Shown piece after piece: positions 29,359 to 55,085 of a stretch of DNA of 64,000 nt. Position numbers and translations under genes: made by a program. The notes beneath the pieces were generated by a model. It had not been told where the DNA came from. It did not search any database and was given only the letters and a program-made list of their open reading frames with translations. Origin of the DNA: a virus; the IMG/VR virus record IMGVR_UViG_3300045988_175607, positions 111,956-175,955 of that record. One strand, given 5' to 3'. Position 1 is the stretch's first letter, and each line of letters starts with the position of its first letter.

Positions 29359-29714
29359 TTATGCGGGAAGTAGCTATCAAGACACATTTGATTATACAGT
29401 CCGTCCATGACGAATATCATATGTCGTGGCAGGGTAAGATTATCAATACAAAACCTAAGTTCAAAGATAACAAACTTATGTTTGCTATTGTTGGCGGCAA
29501 AGGGCGCATGGAAATTAATACTCTTGATATGCAGGAAGTTGAGCGGTGCGCAAAGTTGATGACATTGCCGCGCGGTCGTGAAGCTATAACAAGTGATACT
29601 GCAAGGGTTTATATCATTGAAGAAGATGATAAAGAAACTCTTATGGGACTTATGACGCATAATCATGTAAAAAAGTATGCACCTATGTACGATAAAGTGG
29701 GGTATAGCGATTAA
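29355..29714 (+). CDS. hypothetical protein (119 aa)
   Basis: ATG overlapping the previous stop (ATGA); RBS aaggag. Confidence 0.5.
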   Translation: MIMREVAIKTHLIIQSVHDEYHMSWQGKIINTKPKFKDNKLMFAIVGGKGRMEINTLDMQEVERCAKLMTLPRGREAITSDTARVYIIEEDDKETLMGLMTHNHVKKYAPMYDKVGYSD

Positions 29715-29722
29715 TATAACCT

Positions 29723-29876
29723 GACTCGTTAGCTCAGTTGGTTTAGAGCACTCGACTTTTGGAAATATAGCTTAGTTGGTAAAGCTTGCGGCTGTTAACC
29801 GCACGACCGTAGGTTCAAGTCCTACTATTTCCGCCAAATCGAGTTGTCCTGAGTTCAAATCTCAGACGAGTCACCA
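29723..29876 (+). tRNA. tRNA-Lys(UUU) gene interrupted in its anticodon loop (between nt 36 and 37) by a complete tRNA-Asn gene; exons 29723-29760 and 29837-29876, CCA encoded
   Basis: Exons join to GACTCGTTAGCTCAGTTGGTTTAGAGCACTCGACTTTT|AATCGAGTTGTCCTGAGTTCAAATCTCAGACGAGTCACCA; perfect cloverleaf (acceptor GACTCGT/ACGAGTC, anticodon stem CTCGA/TCGAG, loop CUUUUAA); close to Bacillus tRNA-Lys. Confidence 0.7.
29761..29836 (+). tRNA. tRNA-Asn(GUU), 76 nt with encoded CCA, nested inside the tRNA-Lys anticodon loop
   Basis: GGAAATATAGCTTAGTTGGTAAAGCTTGCGGCTGTTAACCGCACGACCGTAGGTTCAAGTCCTACTATTTCCGCCA; acceptor GGAAATA/TATTTCC, anticodon loop CUGUUAA, T-arm GTAGG/CCTAC, discriminator G. Confidence 0.8.
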
Positions 29877-30199
29877 TACTTAAAGAGTCCTCCTAAGACT
29901 TTCTTTAAGGCTTACTATAAGGGAAGAAATGTCGGATATTATATTGAAGAAAGATATAATATTGTACAGGTTTTTATTTTTTCCTTAGAAAAAATAAATT
30001 GGGCGCAAAGCGCCCAAGCTATAATCTTGCCGTCGTCAGTTCCAAGCCTGAGTGGAAAAAAGAGAGGATAGTTTTTCATTTTTAGAGGTTCAAAATTAAT
30101 CCACAGGAAGTGCAAGTCTTCACACGGGTTCATAGAGGATTAATGGGCGTGGTTACAGATTCCACGGCTGGAAGGCGCCTCCAGTAACTTAAATAACAT

Positions 30200-30275
30200 T
30201 GCGGGGTGGAGCAGTGGTTAGCTCACCGGTCTCATAATCCGGGCGTCGAGGGTCCGAATCCCTTCCCCGCTACCA
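30200..30275 (+). tRNA. tRNA with CAU anticodon (Met, or Ile2 if lysidinylated)
   Basis: tGCGGGGTGGAGCAGTGGTTAGCTCACCGGTCTCATAATCCGGGCGTCGAGGGTCCGAATCCCTTCCCCGCTACCA; mismatch at the 1-72 position and a UCC T-loop noted. Confidence 0.6.
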
Positions 30276-30293
30276 CTTACCGAGGAAAAACTT

Positions 30294-30602
30294 ATGAATA
30301 AAACTGCCATTGCGCAAATTAATAACTTTATAAAACGTCGTTTTCCACTTGATTGTAATTGGATGAATGGAAATTGTTATTGGTTTGCGCGCATACTTGC
30401 TGACGCTTTTCCAGAATATGAGCCAATTATATGTTATTGGCCAAAAGATGGACATTTTACTTGTTGCTTTTGGAAATTAAACAAAACCCATTTTGACTAT
30501 TCTGGGGAAGTTACTGAATTAGATAATTTCTTTAGTCTTGATGCTATTGCAGATTTAGATCCTGAGTGGTATCAAAGACTTAAACGGGATTGTATTATTT
30601 GA
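30294..30602 (+). CDS. hypothetical Cys/Trp-rich protein (102 aa)
   Basis: ATG 9 nt after gaggaaaaac; follows the tRNAs directly. Confidence 0.45.
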   Translation: MNKTAIAQINNFIKRRFPLDCNWMNGNCYWFARILADAFPEYEPIICYWPKDGHFTCCFWKLNKTHFDYSGEVTELDNFFSLDAIADLDPEWYQRLKRDCII

Positions 30603-31603: not shown

Positions 31604-32866
31604 ATGATTTTAAGTTTAATTACATCTAATTCATGCAATCAAAAATGTTCATATTGTTATTTGCATAAAAATCCTGCTTATCAAGAACAAGATAAAAAGC
31701 TTTTACAGGCATTAGATGATGGTAGTTTTTTCAATAATATTATGAATACCATTCACTCTTTACACTATGACGTAAAAGATTTTGATACACTTGATTTTTG
31801 GGGTGGTGAGCCTACCCTATATTTTGATCAAGAAGATTATTTTGTTGACCAAATATTATATAATTTTCCTAATATAAATAAAATCGCATATTCGACAAAT
31901 TTTTCTACAATAGATCAACAGATAGATTTTATTAAGTATTTTAATAACTACATTCGTCATCTGGATTTATCCATTCAAATTTCTTATGATGGAATATTTA
32001 ATAAAATTACCCGTGGGGTTGATCCAAAAGAAATAAAGGAAAAATTAAAGCAATTTGTTTTCTTTTTAAATAAAGTTTATTTTAATAATTTAACTGTAAC
32101 AATTAATTTAAAAGCAACACTGCCTTGGGCTTTTTACCTTCAGCTTTGCACTGATGTAGAAAAATATCAAGAGTATTTAAAACACATTCAAGAATTACAA
32201 AAATATTTTGAAGCTCTTTCTTTGAATAAAAATGTTTTTTTGCGTATTAGTGATTCTATGATTTATCCTACCACAACCTCTCCTACTCATTACACTCAAG
32301 AAGATGGTAGACAATTTGCGCTTGGGGCTTATAATTTATATTTACATAATTTGCCCAATATACCTTTGCGCTTGGTAGAAAAATCTTTTAATGAGCCTTC
32401 TGATTATTGCGGACATATGACAAGGCAACTTTTATTTAAATACGATGGCACTCTGTCTCCTTGCCCCGCAGGGTTTATGGATGATAATGAGGCCAATCTT
32501 AAATGGTTAAAAGAAAATGACCCAGAAGAATATAAACAATTATTAAAAAGTAAATATCTTAGTAAAGAACACGATTATATTATTAGATATGTGGCGCAAG
32601 ACCTTAGAACGTCAGAGCTAACTTTTGTTATGAGTCAAATGTATGATTTGGCGCAAGCCGGCCTAATTTCTCCAGTGTATAAAGATAATGAGGCCGTGAG
32701 GTTCCGACATGCGCAATATTTAATTAACCTTCATTCCTGTTATTACTGGAATTTGCGCACTTCCGGCAGTTTATTCACCTTTTGGAATGATAATATAAAA
32801 TTATTCTGCAATGGATTGTTTGAATTTTATGATTGGATGAAAAATAATGGAACAGTATCAAATTGA
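31604..32866 (+). CDS. radical SAM enzyme (CX3CX2C, GGEP motif), cassette 1 first maturase-like gene
   Basis: SCNQKCSYCYLHK then FWGGEPTLYF; homolog of 38321-39667. Confidence 0.75.
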   Translation: MILSLITSNSCNQKCSYCYLHKNPAYQEQDKKLLQALDDGSFFNNIMNTIHSLHYDVKDFDTLDFWGGEPTLYFDQEDYFVDQILYNFPNINKIAYSTNFSTIDQQIDFIKYFNNYIRHLDLSIQISYDGIFNKITRGVDPKEIKEKLKQFVFFLNKVYFNNLTVTINLKATLPWAFYLQLCTDVEKYQEYLKHIQELQKYFEALSLNKNVFLRISDSMIYPTTTSPTHYTQEDGRQFALGAYNLYLHNLPNIPLRLVEKSFNEPSDYCGHMTRQLLFKYDGTLSPCPAGFMDDNEANLKWLKENDPEEYKQLLKSKYLSKEHDYIIRYVAQDLRTSELTFVMSQMYDLAQAGLISPVYKDNEAVRFRHAQYLINLHSCYYWNLRTSGSLFTFWNDNIKLFCNGLFEFYDWMKNNGTVSN

Positions 32867-34244
32867 AAATAATAAATTATTAACTTCTTTTATAGAAAGA
32901 CATTATTACAATGATCCAAATAAAGGAATTGAATTGTTCGTGCGCGCAAAATGTCCATCTAATTGTGTTTATTGTTATTTTAAAAAGTATGGTTGTGAAT
33001 TATATCCAGAAGATAAGCAAACTGATGAACAAATATTAAACAATTTAAATATATTTTTAGATTATTATATTAAAAAACAATTTACTAAAGATATTTCCTT
33101 ATTCTCTGGCGAGTTTATTATTGATGGATTATTTGGGCAAATTATGCAAATCTTTTATGATAAATTTACTAATCAATATTATAAACCTCGTGCAATAATA
33201 ATTTCTGATGATGGAGACTTTATTTCATATCCAGAAAAAATCCAAGAGGTAGAAGATTGGATTGCGCGACTGGCTTCAATAGGCATAGGTTTACATTTTA
33301 GTTTATCAGTTGATGGTAAATATATGGATATGAATCGTTCGCGGTCTCAGCGCACCGATGAGTATTACAAAACTCTTATTGATTTTTGTGATAAACACTT
33401 TTTTGCATTTCACCCAATGGTAAGTGCTTTCAATATCGACAAATGGATTGAAAATTATGATTGGTGGAAAAGTGTCCTTGATGATTTTCAATTTTCGCGA
33501 CTTATGTTACTTGAAGTGCGCGATGATAATTGGACAAATGATAAGATTCAAGAATACCTAAAATTCTTAAATTATGTTATTGAGGATAATTTTAAAAATC
33601 GTTATCATGGTAATCGCGAATTAATGGCGCAAAGAATTACTAATCAATTGTATTATACTACAGCTTCATATGATCCGCTTACCATTCCTTGCTTCTTAGA
33701 TGAAGATGGTCGCGATTATTTTGGTATGTGTTGTACTATAAAAACTAATTTGTGCGTGCGCTTAGGTGACCTTGCGATTGTACCTTGTCACCGCACCGCC
33801 TATCCGCAATTTGTCAATGGACATTTTGAAGTAATAGATGGAAAAATAAAAGGTATAGTTTGTGAAAACTACGAAATTCTTTCAGCTATTGGATCGTGGA
33901 ATCGTAATAGCGCACCTCGATGTAATTCCTGCAAAATAAAACAATGGTGTAGTGGAGGATGCCTTGGTTCTAATTTTGAATCAACTCATGAATTATTTAT
34001 TCCTCCTAAAACTGTATGTAATTTTATGCAGGCTAAATATAAATTTTTAATAATGAAATATGAAGATATGGGGTTGATGCCTTATATCAAAAACCATTTA
34101 TCTGAATTTCAATATAAATATATAGAAGATTATATGGATGTTTTATCCAAGGAGATTTTAATATATGGACGAGTTTTATCAGATAGAATCAATGATGCGC
34201 AAAATCAAGGAAAGTCTATCAGCCAATTCGTCAACCTTAGTTGA
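32847..34244 (+). CDS. radical SAM / SPASM-domain enzyme, cassette 1 second maturase-like gene
   Basis: KCPSNCVYCYF (CX3CX2C), FSGEF; C-terminal SPASM Cys cluster CCTIKTNLCVRLGDLAIVPCHRT...CNSCKIKQWCSGGC; homolog of 39633-41114. Confidence 0.75.
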   Translation: MEQYQIENNKLLTSFIERHYYNDPNKGIELFVRAKCPSNCVYCYFKKYGCELYPEDKQTDEQILNNLNIFLDYYIKKQFTKDISLFSGEFIIDGLFGQIMQIFYDKFTNQYYKPRAIIISDDGDFISYPEKIQEVEDWIARLASIGIGLHFSLSVDGKYMDMNRSRSQRTDEYYKTLIDFCDKHFFAFHPMVSAFNIDKWIENYDWWKSVLDDFQFSRLMLLEVRDDNWTNDKIQEYLKFLNYVIEDNFKNRYHGNRELMAQRITNQLYYTTASYDPLTIPCFLDEDGRDYFGMCCTIKTNLCVRLGDLAIVPCHRTAYPQFVNGHFEVIDGKIKGIVCENYEILSAIGSWNRNSAPRCNSCKIKQWCSGGCLGSNFESTHELFIPPKTVCNFMQAKYKFLIMKYEDMGLMPYIKNHLSEFQYKYIEDYMDVLSKEILIYGRVLSDRINDAQNQGKSISQFVNLS

Positions 34245-48079: not shown

Positions 48080-48153
48080 TGCGGGCTGGTGAAATGGTAG
48101 CCACAGCGCTCTCTAAAAGCGCCTTTTTCTGAGTTCAAGTCTCAGGCCCGCCG
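48080..48153 (+). tRNA. suppressor tRNA with CUA anticodon (reads UAG)
   Basis: tGCGGGCTGGTGAAATGGTAGCCACAGCGCTCTCTAAAAGCGCCTTTTTCTGAGTTCAAGTCTCAGGCCCGCCG; anticodon stem GCGCT/AGCGC, loop CUCUAAA, T-arm CTGAG/CTCAG; acceptor pairing imperfect in my hand fold. Confidence 0.6.
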
Positions 48154-48270
48154 CGGTATCATGTAGGGGCCTTTTCGTGGCGATACTATTTAAACTAATT
48201 CTACTAAACTCTCAGTATTTTGCTGAGAGTTTTTTTTTATTAAAAATTTATGATATAATATTTATAGAAA

Positions 48271-52969: not shown

Positions 52970-53695
52970 ATGGCATTGATAGATATAACAAATCAAAAAT
53001 TTGGACGACTTGTTGTTTTGTATAGAGATAGAGAAGCAGAAATAAAAAGAAAAAGTAGAAACGCAATGTGGCGATGTCGTTGTGAATGTGGTAATGAAGT
53101 GAGTGTTGTGGGTAAGGATTTACGCTCAGGAAAAACTTTATCTTGTGGATGTTTACAAAAAGAAAGAGCTTCACAAGCAAATAGTAGTAATTTAATTGGA
53201 CAACGTTTTGGTAAATTAGTAGTAATAAAACAAGTTGTTTCTGAAAAGCATCGCTCAAGATGGTTATGTAAGTGTGATTGTGGTAATATGGTTGAAGTAA
53301 AAGCCCGCGAATTATAGAGGGGGGATACTCAATCTTGTGGATGTTTGTTTTCTGCTGGAGAAGCAAAGATATCTCAAATATTGGCAGAACTACAATTGGA
53401 ATATAAAAAAGAATATATTTTTAAAGATTATCCAACTGCCAGATTTGATTTTGCTCTATTAAAAAATAAACAGGTATATTGTCTTATTGAATATGACGGT
53501 CCTCAACACTTTATTAATACTGCTAATTCTGGTGGATGGAATACTATTGAAAGATATAAAACAATTACCCATCCTAAAGATTTAGAAAAAAATAAGTATT
53601 GTCAAGATAACAATATCCCTCTTATTAGAATTCCTTATAATGACTATAACAATTTAACGAAAGAATGGCTTGAAAGGAAAATAAATAATGTATAA
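52970..53695 (+). CDS. putative endonuclease: N-terminal zinc-binding repeats plus C-terminal Vsr/DUF559-like PD-(D/E)xK domain; one in-frame TAG at 53315-53317
   Basis: ORF-track 52970-53317 and 53345-53695 are in one frame across TAG (…KAREL-TAG-RGDTQSCGCLFSAGEAK…); repeats W.C.C.CGN and C-terminal LIEYDGPQHF. Confidence 0.5.
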
Positions 53696-55085
53696 AGCTT
53701 ATATAACTTATGTAAAAAATATTCGTCCTGCGGAAAACTCTGATTTTCTTAATGCTTGTGAAGTATTTGGTAATACAACTATTATTGATAAAACCATCAC
53801 TGAAGATACTCTTGTTCTTTATTTTCCTTCAGATGGTCAAATTTCTATAGAATTTGGTGAGAAAAATAATCTTTTTAGAAAGAAAGATGATGCTGGTAAC
53901 AATATTGGTGGTTTTGTTGACCCCGTTAAAAGAAATATTACCGCAATTCGTTTAAGGGGTAATCGTTCAGATGGTTTAGTATTACCCATTTCGTGTTTAA
54001 ATTATTGCTATACTCATGATAATGCTTCTGCTGAATTACATGCTGGCGATATAATTAATGGAACTCTTAATGGCCATGAAATATGCTGTAAGTATATTCC
54101 GGTTGTAAAAAATAAAGCTTCCAATAAAGCTAAGAAGTGTAATAAAGTGCGCAAGCACATAGCTCCTATTGCTCCCTTGTTTATAGAACATGCAGATACT
54201 GAACAGTTGAATTATAACCTTGATGCGTTTAAGTCTGGCGATCAAATAGAGATAACTCTCAAGATGCATGGCACTTCAAATCGAGTGGCATATGTTCCAG
54301 TTCTTAAGAGATTTAAGCGAACTCTGTTTGACCGTATATTTGGTCGCGAAGGCAAACCTATATATGAATATGACTATATAAGCGGAACTCGTAGAACTGT
54401 ACTTGATAACTTTGATGGTGGCTTTTATGGAAGTAATGCTTTCCGCAAGCAGTTTGAAGATCGACTGCGCGGCAAGCTCTATAAAGGCGAAGAGGTTTAC
54501 TTTGAAATCGTGGGGTTCACTGATGCGGGCATACCGATTATGCCAATAGGGGATAATAATAAGGTCGGTAAGGATTTTGTAAAACAGTATGGTGAAAAAA
54601 CTGTATTTAGTTACGGTTGTGAAGTGCCGCAGTCTGAAATGTATGTCTATCGCATGACTATGACTAATGAGGATGGCGATGTAGTAGAATATTCTCCTGA
54701 CTTTATGCGCTATCGCTGCGAGCAAATAGGTGTAAAGACTGTGCCAGTTTTTTACAAGGGCTATATACCGGAAGAATATACTGAAATAAATACTCGACTC
54801 GATAATCATATTGTAAAAATAGCTAATTATATTACTCCTGGCGAATGGGTAAAAGATTTAGCTGAGGAATATTATAACGGCCCCGATCCGATAGGTAAGA
54901 CTCATGTGCGCGAAGGTGTGGTAGTTCGTATCGTCAATAGGCCTAAGTTCTGCGCGTATAAAACTAAGAATTTCTCATTTAAGCTGGTCGAAGGAATCGT
55001 GAAGGAGAGTGCACAAGCGCCAGATATGGAAGAAGCGCAAGATTTATTGATTGAAAATGAGGAGGAAATACAAAATGACGAGTGA
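53688..55085 (+). CDS. ATP-dependent RNA ligase (Rnl2-like, KxHG motif I)
   Basis: Motif I ITLKMHGTSNR (compare T4 Rnl2 KIHGTN), motif III YFEIVGF, motif IV REGVVVRIV, motif V CAYKTKNF. Confidence 0.65.
   Translation: MYKAYITYVKNIRPAENSDFLNACEVFGNTTIIDKTITEDTLVLYFPSDGQISIEFGEKNNLFRKKDDAGNNIGGFVDPVKRNITAIRLRGNRSDGLVLPISCLNYCYTHDNASAELHAGDIINGTLNGHEICCKYIPVVKNKASNKAKKCNKVRKHIAPIAPLFIEHADTEQLNYNLDAFKSGDQIEITLKMHGTSNRVAYVPVLKRFKRTLFDRIFGREGKPIYEYDYISGTRRTVLDNFDGGFYGSNAFRKQFEDRLRGKLYKGEEVYFEIVGFTDAGIPIMPIGDNNKVGKDFVKQYGEKTVFSYGCEVPQSEMYVYRMTMTNEDGDVVEYSPDFMRYRCEQIGVKTVPVFYKGYIPEEYTEINTRLDNHIVKIANYITPGEWVKDLAEEYYNGPDPIGKTHVREGVVVRIVNRPKFCAYKTKNFSFKLVEGIVKESAQAPDMEEAQDLLIENEEEIQNDE

Follow-up and report, generated by a model that had tools for sequence, protein, structure and literature searches.

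We analyzed a 64,000-nt stretch of DNA (hereafter the window; positions 111,956 to 175,955 of IMG/VR record IMGVR_UViG_3300045988_175607) from an ~176-kb phage genome that is found in gut-type metagenomes. In this window, a complete tRNA-Asn(GUU) gene lies within the anticodon loop of a tRNA-Lys(UUU) gene, an arrangement that we call a nest and write as Lys[Asn] (Table 1). The 5' part of the tRNA-Lys gene (38 nt, GACTCGTTAGCTCAGTTGGTTTAGAGCACTCGACTTTT), its 3' part (40 nt, AATCGAGTTGTCCTGAGTTCAAATCTCAGACGAGTCACCA) and the inner tRNA lie exactly where an initial annotation, made from the window alone, had placed them, and ARAGORN called both tRNAs. The joined Lys parts, which are 78 nt long and not 76 nt as first given, were called as tRNA-Lys(ttt); all 21 of their stem pairs (acceptor, D, anticodon and T) are Watson-Crick, the 7-nt anticodon loop reads CUUUUAA with UUU in place, and the 3' end is A73-CCA. 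A strict split-tRNA scanner also returned this full cloverleaf. The 76 nt in between were called as tRNA-Asn(gtt) with a GCCA tail and scored 73.5 bits against Rfam RF00005 (gathering score 29), the top tRNA of the window. The tRNA-Asn sits between U36 and A37 of tRNA-Lys, and not at 37/38, as had been claimed; the flanking bases permit no alternative placement. The minimum-free-energy fold of the whole 154-nt locus, a check that the initial annotation had proposed, is a cloverleaf within a cloverleaf (-49.1 kcal/mol, z = -3.7).

ARAGORN called nine tRNAs in the window, and none of these calls within the 64 kb is a further tRNA-Lys. With the intron and related options (-i, -i0,200, -io and -ps) ARAGORN never reported the outer tRNA-Lys in place, and it reported this gene only once the tRNA-Asn had been deleted; the suggested scan with intron options thus missed it in the native sequence. 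The exon-exon junction, GCACTCGACTTTT joined to AATCGAGTTG (k-mer GAGCACTCGACTTTTAATCGAGTTGTCC), is absent from the DNA of every allele that we have seen.

Table 1. Features of the nested locus, related nests, allelic forms of the Lys interval and other elements. Numerical coordinates refer to the window; L numbers denote other loci; ORF, open reading frame; frame, the tRNA or tRNA-like part of an insert; a caret marks the insertion point in the outer anticodon loop.
Feature	Location	Strand	Description
tRNA-Lys(UUU) 5' part, nt 1-36	29723-29760	+	Acceptor 5' strand, D arm, CTCGA, loop CUUUU
tRNA-Asn(GUU), complete; intervening sequence of the Lys gene	29761-29836	+	G73 and encoded CCA; ARAGORN; Rfam RF00005
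tRNA-Lys(UUU) 3' part, nt 37-76	29837-29876	+	AA, TCGAG, variable loop, T arm, acceptor 3' strand, A73-CCA
Nest in Gly(UCC)	L070		Loop CTTC^CAA, U73; 158-nt frame without ORF; L071 has the same frame with a GIY-YIG ORF
Nest in Asn(GUU)	L071		Loop CTGT^TAA; 735-nt frame with an HNH ORF
Nest in Glu(UUC)	L108, L117		Loop CTTT^CAC; 862-nt frame with a GIY-YIG ORF
Nest in Glu(UUC)	L113		Loop CTTT^CAA; 74-nt ORF-less version of a frame homologous to that of L108
Nest in Glu(UUC)	L116		Loop CTTTC^AA; 844-nt frame
Nest in CUA suppressor	L109		Loop CTCT^AAA; 45-nt minihelix
Nest in a tRNA that is probably Leu(UAA)	L120		Loop C^TTAAAA; 47-nt minihelix
Form A: intact tRNA-Lys	L006, L007, L011, L016, L032, L036-L038		Same form in the 82%-related IMG/VR contig L001
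Form B: Lys[Asn]	Five contigs with the neighborhood of the window; L035		L035 has tRNA-Asp in place of tRNA-Met as the next tRNA
Form C: 17-nt remnant of the Lys 5' end	L005, L009, L010, L012, L013		191-aa HNH ORF and a different intact Lys
Form D: Lys[Asn[ORF]]	L014		464-nt insert after U36 of the inner Asn, almost wholly a PDDEXK_5 ORF
Form E: Lys with an unrelated 67-nt element	L034		
ATP-dependent RNA ligase, candidate exon-sealing enzyme (putative role)	53688-55085	+	PF09414, E 8e-9
P-loop polynucleotide-kinase-like protein	59351-59893	+	PF13671 AAA_33, E 2e-18; weak TIGR04075 (bacterial Pnkp kinase domain)
YfcE-like metallophosphoesterase	59878-60447	+	TIGR00040, E 3e-5, below cut-off
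Twister-like element	30018-30072	+	Also L005 4270-4324, L014 1654-1708, L034 2220-2274
Second tRNA of the locus	30200-30275		Also L006 3769-3845, L032, L034, L035
Two adjacent radical-SAM-like ORFs (420 and 465 aa)	31604-34244	+	
CUA-anticodon tRNA (amber suppressor type)	48080-48154	+	ARAGORN; below threshold of the Rfam tRNA model
Weak HNH matches	52979-53338		Just upstream of the ligase
813-aa ORF with major-vault-protein domains	56367-58808	+	PF11978, E 8e-20; PF17795, E 2e-10

The nest is present on at least seven contigs from at least four samples. We recovered the locus from ~30 contigs, using as anchors a 117-aa gene that ends 8 nt before tRNA-Lys and a YunG-like gene that follows the next tRNA. 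Five contigs carry the nest in the neighborhood seen in the window. The 579-nt interval containing the nest is identical on ENA assemblies ERZ28573464 and ERZ27250529, and the former holds a 21-kb stretch identical to the window. The nest also occurs in Logan data, in SRR31228250 (L035) on a recombinant background and in SRR29133565 (L014) with an extra ORF, and L008 likewise has a nested Lys; three backgrounds are thus represented, marked by tRNA-Met, tRNA-Asp and an endonuclease ORF, respectively. A sequencing or assembly error, a concern raised by the initial annotation, would have had to arise identically in independent assemblies made by different pipelines from different samples, and would not account for the variants of the nest in L014 and L035; we regard an artifact as close to inconceivable. 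By megablast and blastn against 50,697 phage records, we found no related locus and no match spanning the nest, but only ordinary tRNA similarities. In IMG/VR, the exact junction pattern of the nest gave no match, a 25-mer from the 5' end of tRNA-Asn matched only unrelated tRNA-Ile genes, and a gapped pattern for the Lys lineage with the CTCGA stem gave two chance, non-tRNA matches; the Lys 3' half had no match in JGI metagenomes. The nested Lys lineage is essentially confined to ENA and Logan.

Strains with identical flanking proteins carry five forms (A to E) of the Lys interval, which marks the site as a hot spot of endonuclease-driven DNA exchange. Intact and nested alleles occur side by side among close relatives, and, as judged by sequence comparison, the nest is the derived state relative to L001. 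The ORF within the inner tRNA-Asn of form D has the homing endonuclease I-Ssp6803I as its closest solved relative (2OST, E 5e-6); the copy of the nest in the window has no ORF, and tblastn found no PDDEXK_5 match in the window. The target of I-Ssp6803I is the anticodon region of tRNA-fMet genes. The enzyme recognizes a pseudo-palindromic 23-bp sequence (PMC3384342). The intact tRNA-Lys in close relatives, together with the endonuclease hot spot, makes a mobile-element origin central to any account of the nest, a context that the initial annotation lacked.

The same alleles are compatible with the main rival account, in which a mobile tRNA-Asn cassette, with or without its endonuclease, inserted selfishly into tRNA-Lys, only tRNA-Asn functions, and the Lys halves make up a pseudogene of recent date. 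An intact tRNA-Lys is found in near-identical strains, the nest is limited to a narrow sublineage without sequence divergence, and at this very hot spot an HNH cassette replaced Lys altogether and left a 17-nt remnant. The perfect appearance of the halves could reflect a recent insertion or renewal by recombination with intact alleles. We consider this account possible but on balance doubtful, for reasons that emerge from the comparison of nests below.

A second, independent insert was found in the Lys allele of L034, which has a GCGC/GCGC D arm and is interrupted after U34. This 67-nt insert (GGCTAGT...ACTAGCC-GCCG) is unrelated to the tRNA-Asn of the window. It scored 44.4 bits as an Rfam tRNA, with the whole anticodon loop deleted and the anticodon arm missing; pairing is perfect in the acceptor, D and T arms, the tail is GCCG, and the precursor again folds as a nest. 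All three interrupted Lys alleles share the anticodon stem CTCGA/TCGAG, which differs by two compensatory pairs from the ATTGA/TCAAT of all intact Lys alleles in the close group; the intact Lys of L001 likewise differs from the nested alleles by compensatory anticodon-stem pairs.

Other exchanges were noted around the site. The HNH cassette (L005 3355-4544; also L009, L010, L012, L013 and L015) encodes a 191-aa HNH ORF with four in-frame TAG codons, and two weak matches to the N-terminal part of the L005 ORF lie in the window (Table 1). As the second tRNA of the locus, strains with identical flanking proteins carry either tRNA-Met(CAT) or tRNA-Asp(GTC), and the tRNA cassettes at this position are swapped along with an ~40-nt upstream hairpin. 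Several tRNAs of the nest-bearing phage group, among them this second tRNA in the window, L005 4051-4125 and the Lys 3' part of L014, have a T loop of UCCGAAU or UCCGAGU, with C for U at position 55.

Further nests were found in 67 IMG/VR loci that encode relatives of the L014 PDDEXK_5 ORF. These loci were first searched by a split-tRNA finder; a nest test followed, which requires that 7 nt of outer loop be left, that the insert begin with a 7-bp acceptor strand pairing with its bases -11 to -5 from the end, and that a T arm precede these bases. On both strands of the window and 46 loci, the strict split-tRNA scanner returned only true interrupted tRNAs. Across all 571 kb of collected sequence, the nest test returned 14 nests, against none in reversed copies; the observed nest is confirmed, far beyond chance. 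Altogether there are nine nest types: seven in unrelated IMG/VR phage contigs, one in the window and one in L034. The proposed search of related phages thus yielded the nest itself and the L034 type.

The nine types obey the same boundary rule. Each insert has a 7-bp acceptor stem and a T arm, its first base is G, and its removal leaves exactly 7 loop nt; NCCA ends the insert in all types but one (GCCG in L034), and U precedes it in six. The insert of the window shows every family feature, namely the G start, the 7-bp acceptor, the T arm, the NCCA-type tail and the 7-nt outer loop. After removal, the anticodon of the outer tRNA fits its discriminator, for example U73 for Gly, and CUUUCAC for Glu. 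At the site of the Gly nest, L072 has an intact Gly allele that differs from the nested allele by compensatory anticodon-stem pairs. Inserts without an ORF measure 45 to 160 nt, and those of L109 and L120 are acceptor/T-arm minihelices with ACCA. Where a frame bears an endonuclease ORF (GIY-YIG, HNH or PD-(D/E)XK), the ORF occupies the place of the anticodon arm, and the ORF-less and ORF-bearing versions of one frame (L070/L071 and L113/L108) form the pattern of a homing cycle. Full-text literature searches retrieved no description of a tRNA or tRNA-like frame inside the anticodon loop of another tRNA, which agrees with the initial statement that no bacterial or phage tRNA gene interrupted by another tRNA was known. 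From sequence comparison, the best explanation is that the inserts form a family, not described until now, in which tRNA-like or minihelix frames occupy the anticodon loops of tRNA genes in gut phages.

From this architecture we infer how mature tRNA-Lys might be made. The 154-nt region would be transcribed as one double cloverleaf. RNase P would cut between Lys U36 and Asn G1, leaving a 3'-OH on the Lys 5' part, and a 3'-end-processing endonuclease would cut directly after the CCA of tRNA-Asn, leaving a 5'-phosphate on A37 and freeing mature tRNA-Asn. The ATP-dependent RNA ligase of the phage would then seal the nicked anticodon loop, whose two sides the Lys stems keep in place. A single locus would in this way give both tRNAs, tRNA-Asn as the intron and tRNA-Lys as the spliced product. 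We give an even chance to this reading, that is, to tRNA-Asn being a tRNA-shaped mobile intervening sequence that is excised by end processing, with tRNA-Lys resealed by the phage ligase. The broader proposal is that gut phages harbor a new class of mobile intron, built on a tRNA-shaped frame that ranges from a full tRNA to a 45-nt minihelix, often with a homing-endonuclease ORF, and removed not by a ribozyme or splicing endonuclease but by universal tRNA end processing (RNase P at the 5' end and a cut after CCA at the 3' end), with the exons rejoined by a phage RNA ligase; this we hold to be possible, slightly short of an even call.

Several observations favor excision and resealing. Inserts that run from a tRNA-like +1 G to position 76 are expected if tRNA end-processing enzymes define the cuts. 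RNase P recognizes the acceptor/T-arm stack and the 3' NCCA and prefers U at -1, so that a minihelix suffices; an acceptor/T-arm minihelix with ACCA is its minimal substrate. The end chemistry fits as well, because the ends left by RNase P and RNase Z/BN can be joined directly by an Rnl-type ligase, which the genome encodes. The strongest argument for function comes from the ORF-less relics: they keep a perfect acceptor/T-arm minihelix and NCCA while all else is lost, which argues that processing is selected. A dead tRNA-Lys leaves unexplained both these relics and the nine independent nests with ends at +1 and 76 and exactly 7 loop nt, an architecture of which the reversed-sequence control held no instance. 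Exact ends would follow from an origin at the RNA level, with a mature tRNA ligated into a cut loop and reverse-transcribed, but this would call on the same enzymes in reverse and on a reverse transcriptase besides. The splicing mechanism put forward by the initial annotation, RNase P and 3' processing followed by ligation of tRNA-Lys, is the best available hypothesis; it has gained indirect comparative support from the shared boundaries and 7-nt loops of the nine types.

A number of points weigh against resealing. The nest-bearing Lys alleles are nearly identical, and this near-absence of divergence gives no time depth in which purifying selection on the split halves could be seen; descent from a recent intact ancestor, or renewal through gene conversion with intact alleles, could account for their perfect pairing, and the T arm of L014 looks recombinant. 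Many PD-(D/E)XK ORFs interrupt anticodon loops bare, outside any tRNA-like frame, which shows that these phages tolerate interrupted tRNA genes, as a pseudogene origin of the Lys halves would have it. Phage tRNAs are often dispensable, so a disrupted tRNA-Lys could persist, and in many bacteria 3' maturation does not normally proceed by a precise endonucleolytic cut after an encoded CCA. Lastly, the ligase belongs to the core genes: a relative with an intact tRNA-Lys has a copy of 75% identity, so the gene is not specific to the nest. The best 80 of 111 ligase loci included none of the nest-bearing IMG/VR contigs, a result that speaks neither for nor against the model.

If excision and resealing do take place, the history of the family might have run as follows. 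An endonuclease ORF would enter the anticodon loop of a tRNA X, and X with its ORF would then enter a tRNA Y. With X cut out and Y resealed, the element would be tolerated, X would decay to a frame, and the ORF would come and go, the inserts spreading at the DNA level with homing endonucleases. The window would represent an early stage, at which X is still a fully competent tRNA-Asn.

Most of the bare ORFs that follow nt 36 lie in tRNA-Asn; others interrupt Lys, Pro and a type II tRNA. They are I-Ssp6803I-like PDDEXK_5 ORFs (L049-L115, for example L099 1440-1976, L104 1435-1969 and L115 1431-1970; further ones are L110 1433-1973, L057 445-1000 and L021 3357-3883). Those in tRNA-Asn after U36 have a conserved 3' junction (...AAGC^AA) and a short closing helix. 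The bare ORFs leave no room for a ribozyme, and their tRNAs were mislabeled by ARAGORN as tRNA-Asp with an intron. Short anticodon-loop inserts of 31, 52 and 67 nt (L105-L107 2870-2974; L062/L064 1018-1156; L065-L067 972-1125) are not CCA-tailed minihelices; in the 31-nt case, the stem of the anticodon arm continues as a long hairpin. These short inserts may represent a separate type of interruption.

The 17-nt T arm of the L108, L113 and L116 frames (ATGAGTGCAAWTCTCAT), together with the 7-nt acceptor strand and ACCA, is also present in metagenome-assembled genomes of GTDB (L121-L138). There the T-arm motif lies at the 3' end of an element whose 5' end pairs with it. Matches to this pattern in GTDB genomes are mostly ~343-nt elements with tRNA-like ends from uncultured Bacilli, and we set them aside as probable tmRNA genes and not nests. 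On this resemblance, the phage frames may be derivatives or mimics of a tRNA-like domain of the tmRNA type.

We scanned 18 window ORFs with profiles from Pfam or NCBIfam; the RNA-repair genes are given in Table 1. The RNA ligase described as Rnl2-like in the initial annotation is indeed a ligase, by its PF09414 match, but clear membership in Rnl2 did not hold up: the protein matches, through its N-terminal part, the DRB0094 (DraRnl) family TIGR02306 weakly (E 5e-12), below the curated cut-off. Its relatives number at least 8000 in gut-phage contigs, and one was named a 'tRNA-binding EMAP/Myf-like protein' by JGI. DRB0094-type ligases are reported to be 140-fold enriched in tRNA-rich recoded gut phages (PMC10879173). 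The kinase and the metallophosphoesterase, which had been counted among the parts needed to heal the break, are an RNA-repair context superfluous to the proposed pathway. Cuts of the RNase P and RNase Z/BN type leave 3'-OH and 5'-phosphate ends, which are already ligatable, so neither enzyme is needed.

The repair gene set also invites a reading in which the Lys halves serve another end, as a decoy for a host anticodon nuclease or as a timing switch that makes tRNA-Lys depend on the ligase. In its favor, anticodon nucleases often act on tRNA-Lys and tRNA-Asn. Nothing specific supports it, however; Gly, Glu, Leu and suppressor tRNAs contain nests as well, and the break lies elsewhere than the known nuclease sites. 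PrrC and RloC cut 5' of the wobble base (33/34) or excise it, leaving a 2',3'-cyclic phosphate and a 5'-OH. The match to a PrrC/RloC cut site suggested at first therefore holds for the loop and not for the bond, since the gene is interrupted at 36/37, and we rejected a break site of that type. We consider a decoy or switch improbable. The likeness to the repair of tRNA-Lys in T4 (PrrC, Pnkp and Rnl1) is that a phage ligase would seal a break in the Lys anticodon loop and that the window has kinase, phosphoesterase and ligase genes. By contrast, the break in the nest would be programmed by gene architecture, at 36/37 and not 33/34, and would need no healing.

Among known intervening sequences, group I tRNA introns, including that of Synechocystis tRNA-fMet with I-Ssp6803I, resemble the nests in lying in the anticodon loop, usually after a U, and in their mobility by homing endonucleases. 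An intron endonuclease of the I-Ssp6803I type targets anticodon stem-loop DNA, and the sister allele L014 holds a PD-(D/E)XK endonuclease of that family in an insert that follows U36. Nevertheless, the nests have a tRNA or tRNA-like frame, are short when they lack an ORF, and have neither a ribozyme core nor a terminal G. Bacterial tRNA group I introns measure 184-894 nt (PMC13011429), whereas the insert of the window is 76 nt, is itself a tRNA, and ends in A76. No match to RF00028 (Intron_gpI) was found at E<=5 in window positions 29600-30400, nor at E<=1 in L014, L021 and L005. Given the lack of a catalytic core, the short length and the terminal A, we rejected a group I intron.

The protein-spliced introns of archaea and eukaryotes (EndA with RtcB or Trl1) follow the same logic as that proposed here, with enzymes that cut twice and a ligase that joins, and some archaeal tRNA introns also carry functional RNAs, as the nest does. 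The nest differs in its bacterial/phage setting, in its position at 36/37 and not 37/38, and in lacking a bulge-helix-bulge motif; moreover, the proposed cutters, RNase P and a tRNA 3'-end nuclease, would leave 3'-OH and 5'-phosphate in place of 2',3'-cyclic phosphate and 5'-OH. A bulge-helix-bulge intron removed by a splicing endonuclease was rejected, as the precursor has a 5-nt/6-nt internal loop between the Lys anticodon stem and the 7-bp Asn acceptor helix and not two 3-nt bulges around 4 bp. We judge that an intron of either known type is extremely improbable, and that it is very improbable even when pooled with an artifact.

The nest shares further features with other systems. A tRNA shape embedded in a longer RNA is excised by RNase P and 3' processing in mitochondrial tRNA punctuation, MALAT1 mascRNA, tmRNA, and engineered tRNA scaffolds and tRNA-gRNA arrays; in tmRNA and tRNA scaffolds an ORF or cargo stands at the position of the anticodon arm, as in the endonuclease-bearing frames. 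Unlike the nests, none of these lies within the anticodon loop of another tRNA, and none needs its flanks rejoined. Split and permuted tRNA genes (Nanoarchaeum, Caldivirga and Cyanidioschyzon) likewise come in two pieces, with a break in or near the anticodon loop. The pieces of the nest are contiguous and co-oriented with only a tRNA between them, and have neither complementary leaders nor a bulge-helix-bulge; a split or permuted gene was therefore rejected for the Lys/Asn locus. Free-standing phage homing endonucleases (T4 SegB, and those of the T5 tRNA region) also make tRNA clusters hot spots of cassette replacement, and form C is an allele of this kind. They lie between genes, however, and not in a tRNA-shaped frame inside an anticodon loop.

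Other elements of the window were also noted. Between tRNA-Lys and the next tRNA lies an intergenic stretch of ~180 nt that is more conserved than the flanking genes, and in it a full-length match to the type-P1 twister ribozyme falls below threshold (38.9 bits, gathering score 67.2; E 2e-7 on 221 nt). This twister-like element has conserved UAA, GCC, GUUCCAAGCCUG and GAGG blocks, its optional hairpin is reduced to 1 nt, and the predicted cut is between U30022 and A30023. The two radical-SAM-like ORFs lie between the Lys/Met tRNAs and tRNA-Ser and are kept in all related loci. The 813-aa ORF matches shoulder and repeat domains of the major vault protein, which are unusual for a phage. Besides the CUA-anticodon tRNA of the window, the endonuclease ORFs in L005, L071 and L108 need TAG to be read as sense; TAG recoding across the window was not seen in a crude ORF-length test.

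If the Lys halves are rejoined, the nest would add a further route by which cells and viruses remove intervening sequences, one for which housekeeping enzymes of tRNA processing and a ligase otherwise used in repair would suffice. DRB0094/Rnl-type ligases, which are very abundant in tRNA-rich gut phages, would thereby have an everyday function in addition to mending nuclease damage. Homing endonucleases would not depend on a ribozyme to invade tRNA genes, and a tRNA could act as an intron. The outer genes escape standard tRNA finders, as they did ARAGORN here despite its intron options, and phage tRNA repertoires, along with the inferences on codon supply drawn from them, are consequently incomplete. 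Even if tRNA-Lys is dead, the recurrent, exactly bounded architecture would still mark an undescribed family of tRNA-framed mobile elements.

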